Shown piece by piece: positions 1 to 7,295 of a DNA stretch of 64,000 bases. The translations under genes were made by a program, and so were the position numbers. Within the stretch, counting starts at the first letter, position 1; every line of letters begins with the position of its first letter. The notes beneath the pieces were generated by a model, which worked only from the letters and a program-made list of their open reading frames with translations, was not told where the DNA came from and did no database searches. The stretch is taken from contig CBDEGZ010000003.1 of the NCBI GenBank assembly GCA_965238175.1, positions 480,001 through 544,000 of the forward strand, read 5' to 3'. This DNA is from Gammaproteobacteria bacterium. Lineage in GTDB: Bacteria; Pseudomonadota; Gammaproteobacteria; CAJXQU01.

Positions 1-1412
1 AAGTAAGTAAACACTTACAGGTTGCAGATAAACAAACCGTAGAAGCAGCAGTAGCAGCCGCAGAAGCAGCATTTCCTGAATGGCGAAATACACCTGCGAT
101 CAAGCGTGCACGAATTATGTTTCGCTTCAAAGAATTACTTGAAAAGAATGCTGAAAATATCTGCCAGCTTATTGGAGAAGAGCATGGAAAAATTTCTCAT
201 GATGCTATGGGCGAATTACAAAGAGGTATCGAGAATGTTGAATATGCGTGTTCGGCACCTGAGTTATTAAAAGGTGAACATAGTAAAAATGTTGGGCCAC
301 AAATAGATTGTTGGAATGAGTTTCAACCACTAGGAATTGTCGCTGGGATTACACCATTTAATTTTCCTGCAATGGTACCAATGTGGATGTTTCCATTAGC
401 GATCGTCTGCGGTAATTGTTTTGTGTTGAAACCCTCAGAACGAGATCCAAGTTCTACCTTATACATAGTCCAATTACTTCATGAAGCGGGTTTGCCTAAG
501 GGCGTTATAAATGTTGTTAATGGCAATAAAGAGTCCGTGGATATTTTGTTGCAAGATGAACGGGTACAAGCGATCAGTTTTGTCGGGTCAACGCCGATTG
601 CGCAATATATTTACAGTACGGCAACCGCAAATGGTAAACGTTGCCAAGCATTGGGAGGCGCTAAAAATCACGCTATTGTTATGCCGGATGCGGATATCGA
701 TAATGCGGTTAATCAACTTGTTGGAGCAGCTTTTGGTTCCTGCGGAGAACGGTGCATGGCACTTTCTGTTGCCGTTGTTGTTGGCGATGATGTAGGTGAT
801 GCATTAGTTTCAAAAATGCAAGAAGCAATGAAATCATTGAAAGTTGGTGTTTACAGTGAAAGTAGTAATGATTTTGGTCCGCTGATCACTAAAGAGCATC
901 GTGATAAAGTCGCATCTTATATAGACAGTGCAGAACAACAAGGTGCATCAATTGTTGTTGATGGTCGTGATATGACTGTCACTGGATTTGAAGATGGTTT
1001 TTTCCTTGGTGGAACCCTGATCGATAATATAACGCCGGACATGGTTTCTTATAAAGAAGAAATTTTTGGTCCTGTTTTACAGATCGTCCGAGTTAAGACC
1101 ATGCAAGAAGCGATGGATCTGATCGACAACCACGAATATGGAAATGGCACTTGTATCTTCACGCGCGATGGTGAGGCTGCACGCTATTTTTCTGATCATA
1201 TTAAGGTTGGAATGGTGGGTATCAACATTCCCCTGCCCGTACCGGTTGCGTACCATAGTTTCGGTGGTTGGAAGAATTCTTTATTTGGAGACCTGTTTGC
1301 CTATGGTCCCGATGGTGTGCGTTTTTATACCCGAAGAAAAACCATTACCCAAAGATGGCCTTCAGCCGAAATACGCGAAGGTGCGCAATTCTCTATGCCA
1401 ACAATGAAGTAA
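1..1412 (+). CDS. mmsA: CoA-acylating methylmalonate-semialdehyde dehydrogenase (5' end outside window)
   Basis: Frame open from position 3; aldehyde dehydrogenase motifs GITPFNFP, LKPSE, FVGST, GGAKNH, CGERCMA (catalytic Cys), EEIFGP, PLPVP. Confidence 0.92.
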   Translation, partial: VSKHLQVADKQTVEAAVAAAEAAFPEWRNTPAIKRARIMFRFKELLEKNAENICQLIGEEHGKISHDAMGELQRGIENVEYACSAPELLKGEHSKNVGPQIDCWNEFQPLGIVAGITPFNFPAMVPMWMFPLAIVCGNCFVLKPSERDPSSTLYIVQLLHEAGLPKGVINVVNGNKESVDILLQDERVQAISFVGSTPIAQYIYSTATANGKRCQALGGAKNHAIVMPDADIDNAVNQLVGAAFGSCGERCMALSVAVVVGDDVGDALVSKMQEAMKSLKVGVYSESSNDFGPLITKEHRDKVASYIDSAEQQGASIVVDGRDMTVTGFEDGFFLGGTLIDNITPDMVSYKEEIFGPVLQIVRVKTMQEAMDLIDNHEYGNGTCIFTRDGEAARYFSDHIKVGMVGINIPLPVPVAYHSFGGWKNSLFGDLFAYGPDGVRFYTRRKTITQRWPSAEIREGAQFSMPTMK

Positions 1413-1444
1413 TTACCATTAAATAAGTCCGGGTAAAAACACGC

Positions 1445-1630
1445 ATGAGTATCTTCCAACTTTAGCTCGTCCATTTATGAGATTTATGGAACGCTATTAC
1501 CCAGGTTCATTTATATTCGTTATCAGCCTTTCAGTAATTGTTGCCAGTTTATGTTCGTGGTCATTTAATAATAGGTGCTATTGCCGCGCGCAGTGTCGAA
1601 TCGAGTGTGTTGAAAAGCTTGGAGTATAAG
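1445..1630 (+). pseudogene. Remnant of short-chain fatty acid transporter (AtoE-like), frameshifted with a large deletion
   Basis: Fragments LARPFMRFMERYYPGSFIFVISLS and VASLCSWS/LIIGAIAARSV resemble the AtoE N-terminus and a mid-protein helix, now juxtaposed; ATG at 1445 reaches a stop after 6 codons. Confidence 0.5.
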
Positions 1631-1732
1631 ACGAGTAGTTCCTTTGTTACAAATCTCTATCACCCTTTCCATTATGAAAACCAAAATGTTGATGCTACAC
1701 AAAAGAAAATGTAATTTTCATCTATAGAACTT

Positions 1733-2455
1733 TCACTTTTTCGACCACATCCAGATACCTGTAGCCGCAAGGATCAAAAATAAAATAGCGGCAGCATCAA
1801 ATATAAAAACACCAATATTTCCGAAAATACGACCGCTGTGCAAATCTAACAATAAACGTTCAATAGCCAGACCTTTTCCTCGATAGGCTTTTAATAATGC
1901 GCTCTTTAAAGGCTCGTTGATATCGAAGGGTTTAGACCAGTTTATCTTTTGATCAGTATTTTTTTGCCAGGTCAGGGAGTTAATTTCAACTTGGTAGTTA
2001 CCGTGTGTGCCCTGTACTATTAATTGAGCATCGGTAGATTGTCCGATCTGTTGTATACCAGTAGGAACACCTTCAGCACTCGCTAGAATCTCCAACAATT
2101 GACCCTGTTGATCTAATATCTGTATTTCTTCTGATGTAGCAACAATTACCAAACCTTCAATTTCCAATGCTCCAAGCAATTTTCCAGTGCTATCTTCGAG
2201 CTCTTGTTGATCAAAATAAAGTCTGTCACCGAGTGATGAAATATGGTGGTTTTTAGTAACGAAATTGAAAGGAGCCTCTGGCGGGGCAATGTTGTACCAG
2301 TTAAGGACAGCGGAACTGCTGATAAATTTTTGATCGAGTTGTAAACGTTCAGTGTGATTCAGCGCCAAACCTGTAATTGCGAGAATAACCACAAAAATCG
2401 CAGATAGAACGCCAATTCTGCGATGCCAACGCAGCAGTTTTGGATAGTGTTTCAT
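1733..2455 (-). CDS. PepSY-associated TM helix protein (putative di-heme b membrane electron-transfer protein)
   Basis: N-terminal WHRRIG...ITGLALNH and C-terminal LLDLHSGRIFG...TGIWMW motifs around a periplasmic domain. Confidence 0.85.
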   Translation of the reverse strand: MKHYPKLLRWHRRIGVLSAIFVVILAITGLALNHTERLQLDQKFISSSAVLNWYNIAPPEAPFNFVTKNHHISSLGDRLYFDQQELEDSTGKLLGALEIEGLVIVATSEEIQILDQQGQLLEILASAEGVPTGIQQIGQSTDAQLIVQGTHGNYQVEINSLTWQKNTDQKINWSKPFDINEPLKSALLKAYRGKGLAIERLLLDLHSGRIFGNIGVFIFDAAAILFLILAATGIWMWSKK

Positions 2456-2467
2456 TATGTAACCAAA

Positions 2468-3013
2468 TCATTTTAAGTCGTTTTCAACTACGTGATTATG
2501 AAGAACAATTGCGACTCTTGCGAGTTTTTTCATGGCGCGAACAGAAAGAGTAGCTCCGGAAATCCCATCAATAGACTTATTCAGGCCATAATCTTCATCA
2601 ATTCCAGCACCTTTAAATTGATCAGTGAAAAATGGATACTTCACTTCACTGCCACGACTTTCTCGATATTTTAAGACTTTTACCCGTTCAATTTTTCCGG
2701 CATTGACCACTAAACCGGTTGTGATCAGTTTTACTTTTCCAACTTCTTCAAGGATCCAAACTGTCCGATCATTTTCCTTCCAATAACTTAATCGACTACG
2801 TCGCATTTTATGGCCAAGAATATTTTTGATCTGTTTTTTTAGAACTTCATTCAGCCTTAAACGATGCAAGTCTGGAATACTGGAACTGAAGTTACTATTC
2901 ACAAAATCTTCAGGTTTTTGATAAACTTCTAATGCGAAAGTGGCAGGTGCAGCGATGCTGAAACCAATTAGCCATGCCGCAATAAAATTAAAATTTATTT
3001 TCATTTTAGTCAT
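2468..3013 (-). CDS. Exported FMN-binding domain protein (RnfG/NqrC-like flavinylation motif)
   Basis: Signal-peptide-like N-terminus; YRESRG and IDGISGATLS ([ST]GA[ST] flavinylation motif). Start more likely 3013 or 3004 than 3040, which lies in a hairpin. Confidence 0.85.
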   Translation of the reverse strand: MTKMKINFNFIAAWLIGFSIAAPATFALEVYQKPEDFVNSNFSSSIPDLHRLRLNEVLKKQIKNILGHKMRRSRLSYWKENDRTVWILEEVGKVKLITTGLVVNAGKIERVKVLKYRESRGSEVKYPFFTDQFKGAGIDEDYGLNKSIDGISGATLSVRAMKKLARVAIVLHNHVVENDLK

Positions 3014-3022
3014 ATATGCAAA

Positions 3023-3043
3023 GGGGTGACGTAAAGCCACCCC
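3023..3043 (-). terminator. Intergenic hairpin (weak terminator or mRNA stabiliser) between porin and FMN-binding gene
   Basis: Minus strand GGGGTGGC-TTTAC-GTCACCCC followed by TTTG. Confidence 0.55.
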
Positions 3044-3103
3044 GATTCTAGCTCAGGAGTTCCAGACAATAAGAATTCCATTGTTTTATTCATACTCATA
3101 AGT

Positions 3104-4348
3104 TTAAAACTGATAACCTATACCAAGGTTAAATCCATCATTGTCTCCAGCAGTATCATTCTCAAACTGGTAGTCAAACTTCAGTACTACATCCGCACTC
3201 GGCCAATAATTTAAACCTATATCAACCTGTTCATTATCATCGCCGCCGTTACCACCGGCCTTGTTGTTCCACTCTTGATATCGAACGAAGACACCAACCT
3301 CACCACGAGGTACCGCAAATTTATAAGACGGTTCGACATAGAAACCATCTTGTCGATCTGCACCAATCGCTTTAGGGCCTGTTAGCGTAGGGCCATCATC
3401 TAACCACCAACTTGCATAAAGTGCTCTTAGACCAAACCCGTTATGTTCATAATCAACATGTGCTTCAAGTAGGTTAGCGTCAATATCTTCATTGCCTTGC
3501 GTTATATCTAGCTGGTGTTGTGCTGTTACACCAATTTCCAGCCCTGGCATTCCTGTATATCGAATGCGCCCTGTCCATGCGCCATCTTCAGCTGGTGCTT
3601 CTGCAACTTTTCCACGCCCACTTCGAATACTGTATGAACTGGTTGGCGAGTCCAAACCGGAACTAAACATCACATCATATTTCCAACCTGGCGCTATATC
3701 ACCATTGAACCCGACACCCGCTTCCCACCAGGTGGAAGGAATAATATTTCTCTCTACATTATTTCTTTCTACACCATAAAAAGTGGGTGGTTCATGCGTT
3801 TCGTTTATTATCCCAACGGGTACTAGATAGAGACCGGCAAGTGCGTGATGATTTTCATTGATATCGTATTCTATAAAGGCCTGTTCAAGCTCTACTTCAC
3901 CTGGCTCACCATCTCCACTAAGCGCATGTTCAACTTCTAACTCTGAGAAGAACCTTAAATCATCAGCAAATTCATAGCCGAAGAACAACACAAAACGGTG
4001 GAAATCGACCTCCGCTTCCTCATCGTCAAGATTATTGTAATGGAGCTCACCATAACCACCGATGCTCACATTATCTGCAATTGAAGAACTACCTTCTTCA
4101 ACCGCTACGGCGACTTCTTCTTCGACTGTTTCTACCGCTTTTGTATTAGCGACAACCTTCTCTTCTGTTGCTTGTACTTTCTGTTCTGTATTTTCTAGCT
4201 GATTCTTAAGTGCGTTAATCATCTCTTGTTGTTGTTGGATAATCTTCCACATTTCTTCAGCCGTTGGCGGTTTTTCAGCTAAAGATGTTTGTGAAATCCC
4301 CAGCCCTAGTATTAGTAAGATGCTGGCAAGTTGTTGCCTTGTTTTCAT
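3104..4348 (-). CDS. Outer-membrane beta-barrel porin with N-terminal coiled coil
   Basis: Signal peptide, Gln/Glu-rich coiled coil, GGYGELHYN and DFHRFVLF segments, amphipathic strands, C-terminal GIGYQF signature. Confidence 0.85.
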   Translation of the reverse strand: MKTRQQLASILLILGLGISQTSLAEKPPTAEEMWKIIQQQQEMINALKNQLENTEQKVQATEEKVVANTKAVETVEEEVAVAVEEGSSSIADNVSIGGYGELHYNNLDDEEAEVDFHRFVLFFGYEFADDLRFFSELEVEHALSGDGEPGEVELEQAFIEYDINENHHALAGLYLVPVGIINETHEPPTFYGVERNNVERNIIPSTWWEAGVGFNGDIAPGWKYDVMFSSGLDSPTSSYSIRSGRGKVAEAPAEDGAWTGRIRYTGMPGLEIGVTAQHQLDITQGNEDIDANLLEAHVDYEHNGFGLRALYASWWLDDGPTLTGPKAIGADRQDGFYVEPSYKFAVPRGEVGVFVRYQEWNNKAGGNGGDDNEQVDIGLNYWPSADVVLKFDYQFENDTAGDNDGFNLGIGYQF

Positions 4349-4438
4349 AATGATCTCTCGATGTAAGGATTAAATTTGATAAGTGGAAACCACAAAATGC
4401 TGATCCACTACTTACTTTTCTGTTATGCGAACTATACA

Positions 4439-4458
4439 GCTAATGAGAATCATTATCA
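4439..4458. promoter_or_regulatory. Fur box 1
   Basis: GCTAATGAGAATCATTATC (4439-4457) matches consensus GATAATGATAATCATTATC at 17/19. Confidence 0.9.
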
Positions 4459-4489
4459 ACAGCATTGACGTTTTAGTTGTTTTGAGCTT

Positions 4490-4510
4490 AAATGATAATA
4501 ATTCTCATTT
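4490..4510. promoter_or_regulatory. Fur box 2 overlapping a putative -10 element
   Basis: AAATGATAATAATTCTCATTT; 7-1-7 core TGATAAT-A-ATTCTCA has one mismatch; TTGACG -35 at 4465-4470. Confidence 0.88.
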
Positions 4511-4522
4511 AAGGAGGTGGTT

Positions 4523-4861
4523 ATGAAATATGTTGTTGATGCACGATTGGAAAAAGGCCAACCACGATTACGCGTGCTTGATGCGGATACTGGTGTTGTC
4601 CATATGGAGTGGTCTCTAACAAGAGTAAGTCAAATGTTGGATGAAGGCGAAATAGATCCTAATGATTTTCTTCATCCGGAACGCTATGGGATGAGATTAC
4701 TACTAAAAAACTTGTTTCTACTCTCTTGTATAGAGAGTATGGCAAATAATGAAAACCGGGAAAAAGTGAGTAGATCTGATCAGGATTCAGAGAGGTGCTT
4801 ATTGACAGCTAGATCTAAAGATTCAGATTGGTATTTTTCTATTAACGTCAAACCGATTTAA
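4523..4861 (+). CDS. Hypothetical protein downstream of Fur boxes
   Basis: Strong AGGAGG SD at 4512-4517 before ATG 4523; 112 aa; no family recognised. Confidence 0.75.
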   Translation: MKYVVDARLEKGQPRLRVLDADTGVVHMEWSLTRVSQMLDEGEIDPNDFLHPERYGMRLLLKNLFLLSCIESMANNENREKVSRSDQDSERCLLTARSKDSDWYFSINVKPI

Positions 4862-4975
4862 ACATCCGAATTATCAGTTTATAAATAAGCTTGGTAAAAG
4901 CTCAGTTTGATCTATATGTAACTAACGGTATCATGCCGAGAAGAGTCACAAAATACAGACATCTCAGGAGATACT

Positions 4976-5503
4976 ATGCTCAGTAAGAACCTCACCGATT
5001 TATTGAATAAACAAATTAACCTGGAATTTTATTCTTCAAACCTATATTTACAAATGAGATCCTGGTGCGATGCAAACAGCCTGGATGGTTGTGCGCGTTT
5101 TTTACAACAGCATGCGGATGAAGAAATGCAGCATATGCGTCGCTTATTTAATTATGTAAATGAGACCGGCTCAATGGCATTAATTGGTTCTATTGATGCA
5201 CCTAAATCTGACTTTACTGATATCAAAGACATTTTTCAAGCCACTTATGAACACGAATGTTTGATTACAAAAGAGATCAATTCTTTAGTAAAAACAGCCT
5301 ACGATAGTAGCGATTTTTCAACATTCAATTTCCTACAGTGGTATGCAGCAGAACAGCACGAGGAAGAACATTTATTCAGCACCATTCTCGATAAAATCAA
5401 AATGATCGGAATAGAAGGGAAAGGTCTTTATTTTATCGATCAGGAAATTGGTGGAATTGCTGCTGAACGTATAAAAAATCCATCAGATACGCCTCCTGAA
5501 TAA
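4976..5503 (+). CDS. ftnA: Non-heme ferritin
   Basis: QINLEFYSSNLYLQM, EEMQH, YEHE, QWY..EQHEEE ferroxidase motifs; AGGAG SD. Confidence 0.95.
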   Translation: MLSKNLTDLLNKQINLEFYSSNLYLQMRSWCDANSLDGCARFLQQHADEEMQHMRRLFNYVNETGSMALIGSIDAPKSDFTDIKDIFQATYEHECLITKEINSLVKTAYDSSDFSTFNFLQWYAAEQHEEEHLFSTILDKIKMIGIEGKGLYFIDQEIGGIAAERIKNPSDTPPE

Positions 5504-5930
5504 AATATTCCTACCGATCTACTATAGATTTTCGCAAAATCTTCTTTTCTCAGACTGCAACAAGTTGTCGCTTCACAATTACTCTTGACCACCTCTGAGC
5601 AATATCAAAGGTTTTGAAGACACCCTACGTACACACCGTATGGATCTTATACCAAAGAGGTGTATTTTTGAGCGGTACAATCACCATGATCCGGCGAGAC
5701 CTCCGGAGACTTTTACACTATTTTCTAAAGGTAATACGGGTAGAATTTTTTAACTTCTAAAATTAATTTGATTTGAATCTGGCTGCCTCATAACCACAAT
5801 TGTCAGTAATATCTGTAAAGGATTCGTTACAAGTTTTTTGATCGTGCTGCTAAACACTATCATATCCCACTGTTATACTTGTACAGTTTAGTAAACGATA
5901 ATCAGTTGATTGATCAATATCTTATAAGCA

Positions 5931-7295
5931 ATGCTACATAACGAAGAACAGCGCACACATGAAATTCTAAAACTGCTTCAGGAGACGATGAACTCCGAGC
6001 AGGTGGACGATATTGCCTGGTTAAAAGAGGGTATTAAAGAGCTTCATCCTTCGGAAATTGCTGATCTGCTCGAAAGTTTACCTTCTAAAGATCGTGAACA
6101 CTTATGGGAACTGATCGGATCAGATCTGGAAGGTGAAGTCCTTTCGCATGCTCAGGATGGTGTTCGTTCTGGGCTACTCGAACAAATGCAACCGCATGAA
6201 GTTGCAGCAGCGACGGAAAATCTGGAAACCGATGATGCGACTGATATCATCCAGGATCTTGCCGAAGATGTTGTAGATGAAGTGCTTAGTTCGATGGATG
6301 AGCATAATCGTGCTCGTCTTGAAAAAGCGCTTTCTTATCCTGAGGACACGGCAGGTGGTTTGATGAATACACTGATGTTGTCAGTGTATGACAACGTCGA
6401 TTTAGGTGTCGTTATCCGCTACTTACGCATGAAAGGCGAAGTACCAGAAAAGTCTGATAGCTTGATTGTGGTTGATCGTAATAATCATTATCAGGGAATG
6501 CTACCTCTGGTAAAAATCCTTACCAGCAGGCCAGAAGAACAAGTTGCGGATGTGATGAATACTGATATCGAGGCCGTTTCTACCGATATGTCTGCTAATG
6601 AAATAGCGAAACTGTTCGAACAACGCGATCTTTATTCCGTTGCTGTGGTTGATGAAGAAAAGGTGCCGTTAGGACGTATTACTATTGACGACGTTGTCGA
6701 TGTTATTCGTGATCAAGGCGATCACTCCCTGATGAGTATGGCTGGATTGGACGAAGACGATGATATGTTTGCACCGATTTTCGTCAGTGCTCACCGTCGT
6801 GCTTTATGGCTGGGGATCAATCTAACCACAGCATTTCTTGCAGCCTGGGTGATCGGCCGATTCGCTGATACAATTGAACAACTTGTTGCACTTGCGGTGT
6901 TGATGCCGATCGTTGCTAGTATGGGAGGAATCGCGGGCAGTCAAACATTGACAATTGTGATCCGTGGTCTTGCAATGGGGCATCTTGGCCCAGCAAACTC
7001 ACGCGCACTTTTATTGAAAGAAATTGCTGTGGGTTTTCTCAATGGTATTTTATGGGCGACTGTTGTCGGGCTGATTTCAGCATTTTGGTTTAACAACCAA
7101 CAGTTAGGTATGGTGATCGCGGTAGCGATGGTGGTTAATTTATTTGTCGCAGCCTTTTTCGGCGCGGTTATTCCTCTTTGGTTGAAGAAAAGAGAAATTG
7201 ATCCTGCGCTTGCTGGAGGTGTTATGCTCACTACCGTAACCGATGTGATCGGGTTTCTAGTCTTTCTTGGGCTCGCCAGTGTCTTTCTTATGTAA
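5931..7295 (+). CDS. mgtE: Magnesium transporter MgtE
   Basis: YPEDTAGGLM, CBS pair, GRITIDDV, MPIVASMGG, DPALAGG, TTVTD. Confidence 0.96.
   Translation: MLHNEEQRTHEILKLLQETMNSEQVDDIAWLKEGIKELHPSEIADLLESLPSKDREHLWELIGSDLEGEVLSHAQDGVRSGLLEQMQPHEVAAATENLETDDATDIIQDLAEDVVDEVLSSMDEHNRARLEKALSYPEDTAGGLMNTLMLSVYDNVDLGVVIRYLRMKGEVPEKSDSLIVVDRNNHYQGMLPLVKILTSRPEEQVADVMNTDIEAVSTDMSANEIAKLFEQRDLYSVAVVDEEKVPLGRITIDDVVDVIRDQGDHSLMSMAGLDEDDDMFAPIFVSAHRRALWLGINLTTAFLAAWVIGRFADTIEQLVALAVLMPIVASMGGIAGSQTLTIVIRGLAMGHLGPANSRALLLKEIAVGFLNGILWATVVGLISAFWFNNQQLGMVIAVAMVVNLFVAAFFGAVIPLWLKKREIDPALAGGVMLTTVTDVIGFLVFLGLASVFLM

Follow-up and report, generated by a model that had tools for sequence, protein, structure and literature searches.

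A Fur-boxed operon of porin, FMN-binding and PepSY genes as a candidate TonB-independent reductive iron-uptake module in Gammaproteobacteria

The window analyzed here, a stretch of 64,000 nucleotides from a gammaproteobacterial genome (GenBank assembly GCA_965238175.1, contig CBDEGZ010000003.1, positions 480,001 to 544,000), carries a leftward operon of three genes that encode a porin, a flavin mononucleotide (FMN)-binding protein and a PepSY membrane protein. On balance, we favor the reading that this cassette is a Fur-repressed, TonB-independent module for reductive iron uptake. The three genes match only the Pfam families Porin_4, FMN_bind and PepSY_TM, respectively. Coordinates are positions in the window (Table 1), unless marked C3 or with the name of a related locus (L). 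Open reading frame (ORF) calls placed the five ORFs and both Fur-type sites where a preliminary description of this DNA had put them, and the divergent spacer, estimated there at about 170 bp, measured 168 bp (174 bp up to the ATG at 4523).

Fur control of the operon is supported by the scores of the sites, by shuffled sequences and by boxes conserved among relatives, as presented below. The scans used a 19-bp Fur consensus and a palindromic Fur pattern, and sites were ranked by counts of matches to the consensus. The first box matches the consensus at 17 of 19 positions and overlaps the −35 element of the predicted porin promoter. It is the second best among the 57 genomic sites that reach at least 15/19, and it gives the highest upstream score across the 2,422 ORFs of at least 150 aa in the genome. 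The consensus scan returned three matches (both strands of this site and an intragenic one at 6474), against a mean of 0.10 in shuffled sequences, with 0 of 100 shuffles reaching three. The promoter match counts by its position only, because shuffled sequences hold such sites equally often. The second box has no mismatch to the palindromic pattern, for which the scan returned two matches (shuffle mean 0.24, two of 100 shuffles reaching two); it is self-complementary at 18/21 positions in 4490–4510 and at 22/25 in 4488–4512, and it abuts the ribosome-binding site of the facing gene. Against the classical consensus, this second box reaches only 14/19. Thus, both sites of the preliminary description are real, but its term "near-consensus" suits the first better than the second. 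The features of a Fur regulon found here are a box over the promoter, its conservation in relatives and a fur gene in the genome.

The porin matches Porin_4 above the Pfam cut-off (E 3e-7) and Porin_O_P below it (14.1 bits vs 20.9). It has a signal peptide, a long N-terminal helix or coiled coil (residues ~30–84) and then a 16-strand barrel, in a model built with 69 of the available homologues aligned (predicted local distance difference test, pLDDT, 86.9). The best fold matches were OprO and OprP (Z 27.3 and 27.2, the next being 24.3; root mean square deviation 2.8–3.3 over ~300 aligned residues), and a sequence search of solved structures with the porin profile gave nothing significant. Ten residues (E101, D115, E136, E138, E140, H141, E155, N182, H185, and E186) are invariant in all 69 aligned rows and are kept at 96–100% in 150 representatives of 32–65% identity (median 42%). 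They form a conserved Glu/His cluster on strands 1–4 and loop 3. On our reading of strand alternation in the model, E101, D115, E136, E138, E140, and E155 would face the lumen, H141 would end strand 3, and N182, H185, and E186 would lie on loop 3.

With OprO and OprP, the window porin has in common the 16-strand fold (Z 27) and the strand-2 and loop-3 arginines (R118 and R195 in its own numbering), but it differs from them in the Glu/His lining, the strong acidity, the link to Fur and not to Pho, and the long N-terminal coiled coil. The contrast in the lining rests on the Porin_O_P protein of the same genome, whose basic columns align with Glu/His in the window porin, and not on a residue-by-residue alignment of OprP itself. 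This separate, true Porin_O_P (E 5e-52) adjoins phoBR-like and phosphonate-ABC genes. The net charge of the barrel is −40 in the window porin (median −25), against −9 in two true Porin_O_P proteins. The porin family is usually unnamed or called phosphate porin; for the window protein, we rejected a phosphate porin, an outcome that the preliminary description had named as contrary to its reading, on the basis of the acidic Glu/His lining, the sub-threshold Porin_O_P match and the separate Porin_O_P in a Pho context. A precedent for TonB-independent passage of iron is the cyanobacterial iron-selective porin Slr1908, likened here by its description (PMC11126600); the available passages of that source link no flavoprotein or cytochrome b to it.

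The second protein matches FMN_bind (PF04205, E 1e-8), has a hydrophobic N-terminal stretch, and finds its nearest solved structures in RnfG and CPE2226. G162, T164, and S166 are present in 50/50 homologues, with G-A-T-L-S kept. Thr164 (codon 2551–2549) is counted from the GTG at 3040; the true start is probably the ATG at 3013 or 3004. The protein is probably soluble in the periplasm, because it has no lipobox cysteine. ApbE transfers FMN to motifs of the [S/T]GA[S/T] type, as stated in passages of PMC8238504, and we infer that this protein is an ApbE substrate with covalent FMN on the SGAT threonine. The link between motif and ApbE drawn in the preliminary description is strengthened by the conservation of the threonine, by an apbE gene in the genome, by apbE neighbors in relatives and by ApbE-porin fusions.

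The third protein matches PepSY_TM (PF03929, E 3e-14, 54 bits vs a cut-off of 28.8) and has two hydrophobic segments (residues 12–35 and 209–239) flanking a periplasmic domain. H11 and H206 are present in 39/39 homologues and H34 in 37/39. An alignment with FoxB (7ABW, E 2e-7) covers the two outermost helices of FoxB, the first and the last, and pairs H11-R12 and H206-x-x-R209 with its N-terminal H-R and its C-terminal H-G-G-R region. Passages of 10.1101/2021.01.28.428567 describe FoxB as a di-haem ferric-siderophore reductase, which reduces ferrioxamine and holds two b haems, one per membrane face, with R10 and R342 contacting haem. FoxB has four transmembrane helices and two PepSY domains in 382 aa and acts behind a TonB-dependent siderophore receptor, whereas the window protein, at half that size, lacks this single-chain architecture and has a flavoprotein and a porin as its partners. 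Nevertheless, it has histidine ligands of the FoxB type for both a cytoplasmic-side and a periplasmic-side haem, and the alignment of the invariant H11 and H206 thus supports the haem role proposed earlier for its WH and LH histidines. Given its size, the protein must dimerize to act like FoxB; a homodimer would rebuild the FoxB bundle, with di-haem b. The quinone pool, named as electron donor in the preliminary description, is a guess, and a cytoplasmic donor is as likely, because the motif matches the region of the cytoplasmic-side haem of FoxB.

In a complex model, the flavoprotein with two copies each of the PepSY chain and of haem scored 0.44, while the best of three controls reached 0.00; the runs agreed in at least 89% of contacts and the partner pLDDT was at least 82, with haem unscored. 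In the calibration, the mark was passed by 116/157 solved pairs and 2/215 mismatched pairs, and scores up to 0.60 comprised 18 solved pairs and both mismatches. Multimer prediction, a check suggested in the preliminary description, thus lends weak support to a contact between the PepSY protein and the flavoprotein.

We then considered the conservation of the cassette. From 80 GTDB loci, one (L081) was dropped as it matched the N-terminus only, and the remaining 79 comprise 59 close and 20 distant loci, related to one another by a quick tree. The FMN gene lies directly behind the porin in 52/59 close loci, all seven misses ending at a contig edge, and all three genes are present in 49/59. In the distant clade, mostly methanotrophs, porin and FMN gene are found in 14 loci, and in 13 loci the PepSY gene is replaced by one for a His-rich four-helix Aq_1264_TM protein (L059–L078, e.g., L061:10033–10542), a candidate cytochrome b with invariant H39, H73, H75, H88, and H125. 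Upstream Fur matches of at least 14/19 occur in 31/56 close and 9/18 distant relatives, compared with 19/465 other genes of the same loci; this count omits four loci whose upstream DNA was short and two in which no porin ORF was selected.

In an independent, even sample of the class, the porin family was present in 81/401 genomes, a tally that includes the host genome and one unpublished genome (G037); the other 79 are the carriers counted here. By a hand count from coordinates, the FMN gene lies within 1 kb downstream of the porin in 69/79 genomes and within 3.5 kb in 73/79, and the PepSY gene comes next in 61 of those 73. The co-conservation of the three genes is therefore borne out by both samples. 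These linkage counts indicate that porin and flavoprotein are the core and that the membrane partner, the PepSY protein, is the exchangeable part. The family comprises 1,210 representatives at 50% clustering (E up to 1e-30). Even porin homologues of 31–32% identity (Ideonella, Ralstonia) have an FMN-binding gene behind them; the Manganitrophus homologue does not. Carriers in culture include Marinicella sediminis F2, Pseudomaricurvus alkylphenolicus and Cerasicoccus maritimus (L024, L039, and L058). The complete three-gene cassette also occurs in L051, a record titled Halobacteria archaeon that clusters with a gammaproteobacterial locus and is probably a misbinned contig.

The neighborhoods of the 79 loci (−3/+5 kb) contain bacterioferritin in 13 cases, apbE in 11, fbpA-like genes in 9 and CCP_MauG in 6. 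On the quick tree, fbpA falls in one clade, bfr in about five places and apbE in at least three groups; as these loci cluster, the gains of neighbors represent fewer events than the counts. Genes feoAB stand directly behind the porin in two loci (L076 and L077), and in 4/79 genomes no more than ~3 kb separates FeoB from the porin or the PepSY gene. Twenty regions, chosen as atypical or close, were examined closely. Imelysin, a protein tied to iron uptake, is encoded together with DHOR between the porin and the FMN gene in 2/20 regions and behind a lone porin in 1/20. In two other cases of the 20 (L088:4751–7165 and L089:3928–5859), a lipoprotein of ~640 aa is encoded between porin and FMN gene; it has no Pfam hit and shows apparent CxxCH motifs.

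ApbE, usually an inner-membrane lipoprotein, is in some members joined to the porin itself. Among the 150 representatives listed, seven exceed 600 aa, namely six ApbE-porin proteins and one FTR1-porin, and among the 120 matches listed in a follow-up search six carry ApbE. Nine full ApbE-porin fusions are 37–88% alike, and eight of them have a polar linker without an internal signal-like stretch; one ApbE-porin case and the FTR1-porin case, with such a stretch, may be read-throughs. The size-limited search returned no porin fusions of 894–2550 aa, which is weak evidence. The proteins in which ApbE is joined to the periplasmic N-terminus of the porin family are P0216, P0228, P0238, P0248, P0259, P0265, P0277, P0321, P0324, and P0347, and the possible FTR1-porin read-through is P0226.

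Consistent with the preliminary description, profile searches with matches assigned by coordinate found no ApbE, TonB-dependent receptor or FeoB in the window, and the partners that were expected to act in trans were found outside it: apbE lies at C3:606296, 62 kb beyond the window, and fur and feoAB are elsewhere in the genome, which is 97.7% complete. NQR- and RNF-like operons, named from their translations, are also present. The genome profile searches gave no match to FTR1, FbpA, Bfr, IucA or the condensation domain of nonribosomal peptide synthetases, and the genome has no recognizable siderophore system; its sole FecCD match sits in a ZnuABC-like operon. By their best scores, the four TonB-dependent receptors come out as one BtuB-like and one ZnuD-like protein, an 814-aa receptor without assignment and a 1123-aa protein. 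None of them passes a siderophore-receptor cut-off and none has a Fur box (11–13/19), so the cassette is the only clearly Fur-boxed outer-membrane transporter found. The apbE gene (L001:448–2589, C3 ~605–607 kb) is followed by two small genes, which presumably resemble the NusG-II-like and Gx-transporter genes of rnf-linked apbE clusters.

Taken as a reductive iron-uptake module, the cassette would work as follows. Under iron scarcity, Fur would leave both sites and the operon would be expressed, as the binding sites suggest. The porin, probably a trimer judging from its fold, would admit Fe(III) species or Fe(II) to the periplasm by way of the Glu/His constriction, whose lining is derived from conservation and strand register. 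A PepSY dimer would form a FoxB-like four-helix wire of di-haem b through the inner membrane; the ligand motifs are present in the protein, and haem and dimer are predicted from them. Electrons from a cytoplasmic or quinol donor would pass through this wire to the periplasmic flavoprotein. ApbE, found elsewhere in the genome, would flavinylate the SGAT threonine by its established chemistry. The reduced flavoprotein would reduce or release the iron that arrives, and Fe(II) would be imported by FeoAB, the one iron importer of the inner membrane that the genome was found to encode.

Several observations weigh against this reading. FeoB_C is found in only 39/79 carrier genomes, and in one clade the fbpABC-like neighbor encodes an importer of the ferric type, which fits net reduction badly; hence, "reduce, then import Fe(II)" cannot be universal. 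The upstream match of feoA (14/19) is at the genome background, as 103 of ~2,420 genes reach 14. In 5/79 genomes the porin has no FMN gene linked to it (one more case is split by a contig end), and 12 genomes with porin and FMN gene either lack the PepSY gene or have it unlinked. For the Aq_1264_TM protein, the fold search gave only generic four-helix bundles (best Z 9.9) and no haem-protein match, so its haem binding is suggested by the invariant histidines alone. Glu/His clusters do not distinguish Fe from Mn, Co, Zn or Cu. PepSY_TM proteins are diverse, with one subfamily serving copper oxidases according to passages of PMC13038864. Finally, kin are not independent, and the alignment A1 is rich in close homologues.

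A first alternative, which we consider improbable, is iron uptake without net reduction for Feo, in which the porin admits iron and the flavin/haem arm sets the redox state for the importer of each host, by oxidizing Fe(II), by recycling for FbpA, FTR1 or imelysin, or by freeing iron from a periplasmic binding protein. It would account for the 40/79 carriers that miss FeoB, for the fbpABC-like genes after the cassette in nine loci, for the genes of di-haem cytochromes c (CCP_MauG, DHOR) and of imelysin that lie within or next to the cassette in several loci, and for the one FTR1-porin read-through. However, FMN is a low-potential electron carrier, the fbpA link is confined to one clade, the host genome has Feo and no FbpA or FTR1 was found in it, and the characterized PepSY_TM relatives FoxB, FpvG, and VciB reduce iron, as far as the passages of the sources describe them.

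Somewhat less probable still is a role in iron starvation other than iron uptake, such as the import or reduction of another metal in place of iron (Mn, Cu, Co), or an electron path through flavin that spares iron by standing in for an iron-rich periplasmic carrier. Indeed, Fur boxes tell when and not what, Glu/His sites are not specific for a metal, and one PepSY_TM subfamily acts in copper supply (passages of PMC13038864). The recurrent neighbors, however, are bfr, bfd, feo, fbp, imelysin, fur, FTR1, and tonB, with no Mn or Cu genes in the scanned loci, and an iron-sparing carrier requires no dedicated porin. Very improbable, in our view, is a porin for phosphate or another anion that merely lies beside a redox pair: OprO and OprP are its best structural matches and many homologues have a precomputed Porin_O_P hit or name, but the sub-threshold match, the separate true Porin_O_P, the replacement of basic columns by Glu/His, the net charge, the tight linkage to the FMN gene and the ApbE fusions all speak against it.

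By its gene content, the operon falls into a known class. A PepSY-like flavinylation system is defined, in passages of Meheust et al. 2021 (PMC8238504), as a PF03929 or PF16357 protein in a flavinylation-associated cluster. In the window, a PF03929 gene adjoins a PF04205 gene, the substrate is exported and carries the SGAT motif, and apbE is in the genome. For such clusters, iron reduction and assimilation have been proposed, with Fur repression of members (passages of PMC8238504 and of Huang et al., bioRxiv 10.1101/2024.03.13.584918); DUF2271, DUF4198 and ApbE are described there as typical, but not required, companions. The window operon has instead an FMN_bind substrate, no DUF2271 or DUF4198, apbE in trans and a dedicated porin at its head, and is a porin-bearing version of the described systems. 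The Shewanella genes SO1189 and SO1190 are presumably of the DUF2271/DUF4198 type. They belong to SO1188–1190, an iron-regulated Fur-target operon of three genes with a PepSY transmembrane gene, likened here by its description (passages of PMC2535785 and PMC12442407).

The word "porin" is absent from the main texts of PMC8238504 and 10.1101/2024.03.13.584918, and Supplementary file 1 of the former, a cluster list, may hold such loci; "barrel" and "fusion" are likewise absent from the main text of PMC8238504. The ApbE review PMC12052999 mentions neither porin nor barrel, and FeGenie (PMC7005843) does not mention PepSY. A literature search on flavinylation, PepSY, porin and iron, with subscription journals mostly outside its scope, found no description of the cassette. 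The earlier statement that no characterization was known thus holds for the porin-bearing version, but the general PepSY-like class is described. None of the main texts searched mentions the dedicated porin, an FMN_bind substrate of this kind, or the half-size cytochrome and its exchangeability.

Table 1. Features of the operon and its surroundings, as positions in the window
Feature	Position	Strand	Remark
Region of the convergent methylmalonate-semialdehyde-dehydrogenase-like gene	1412–1733		gene named from its translation
Membrane protein ORF	1733–2455	−	240 aa, WH and LH histidines
FMN protein ORF	2468–3040	−	motif DGISGATLS
GC-rich hairpin	3023–3043	−	8 bp, porin/FMN intergenic
Porin ORF	3104–4348	−	414 aa, heads leftward operon
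Sigma70-like porin-operon promoter	4431–4459	−	10/12, best of 14 sites in 1400–5950
Fur box 1	4439–4457		17/19 to 19-bp consensus
Fur box 2	4491–4509		palindromic pattern
Small ORF	4517–4861	+	better-placed ATG 4523, giving 4523–4861
Ferritin promoter-like site	4907–4934		
Non-haem ferritin FtnA	4976–5503	+	Pfam Ferritin E 9e-40
MgtE divalent-cation transporter	5931–7295		Pfam match

The facing small ORF, previously called hypothetical, is indeed present, but its product resembles PA4570 (NF050178, full length at 1–69/69, E 1e-17, 64 bits, below the 100-bit curated cut-off). In Pseudomonas, iron starvation induces PA4570, which carries a Fur box, according to passages of bioRxiv 10.64898/2026.09.03.749296, and the PA4570-like gene is predicted to be a divergent Fur target. 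It was rejected as a member of the conserved unit, as it adjoins the porin in only 4/79 related loci, and so was the ferritin gene, which does so in 1/79. The preliminary description had made the ferritin part of the Fur divergon; with its own promoter-like site and an upstream Fur match of 11/19, which is no Fur box, it is a local neighbor, probably promoted separately. MgtE was rejected as iron importer, since its gene starts an ordinary run that we take, from the translations, to be mgtE-miaB-phoH-ybeY-corC-lnt.

In the porin/FMN intergenic region, the hairpin (z −2.06, with 9/200 shuffles folding equally well) is possibly a partial terminator or a stabilizer of the mRNA, and could raise the ratio of porin to reductase. 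At the other end, a gene that we take to encode a methylmalonate-semialdehyde-dehydrogenase-like protein converges on the operon, and the search for a terminator between the two found no clear one.

Elsewhere in the host genome, a second cassette (C3:1812749–1816125, L083) encodes a DUF6662 barrel, an FMN_bind protein 31% identical to that of the window, a 167-aa His-bearing membrane protein, a PepSY_TM protein and a DUF2490 protein, with a weak Fur-like site (14/19) upstream. The best Fur match of the genome (18/19; C3:2078735, L084:1736–1754) lies ~65 bases before an ORF for a 79-aa Cys-rich protein (L084:1432–1671, minus strand). An Rfam scan found no small RNA near this site or near feoAB.

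More speculatively, and with appreciably less confidence than we place in the iron-uptake module itself, the porin may found a family of iron-selective channels coupled physically to a flavin relay. As the ApbE-porin fusions suggest, its periplasmic stalk would keep the flavoprotein, or the machinery that flavinylates it, at the exit of the pore; the flavoprotein would carry electrons through the periplasm from cytochromes b of the inner membrane that can replace one another (half-FoxB, Aq_1264_TM and others), and iron would be reduced on entry. Such a common, energy-cheap and TonB-free route would be present in one of every five sampled genomes of the class, and also in other phyla, and would be missed by inventories of iron genes. 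The passage of iron across the outer membrane in bacteria without siderophore receptors is poorly known. The Glu/His cluster, the SGAT threonine and H11/H206 are named residues that make the reading directly testable in cultured carriers, and if the porin proves to be a channel for iron that is linked to a flavin reductase, inventories of iron uptake in marine and soil bacteria miss a common route.

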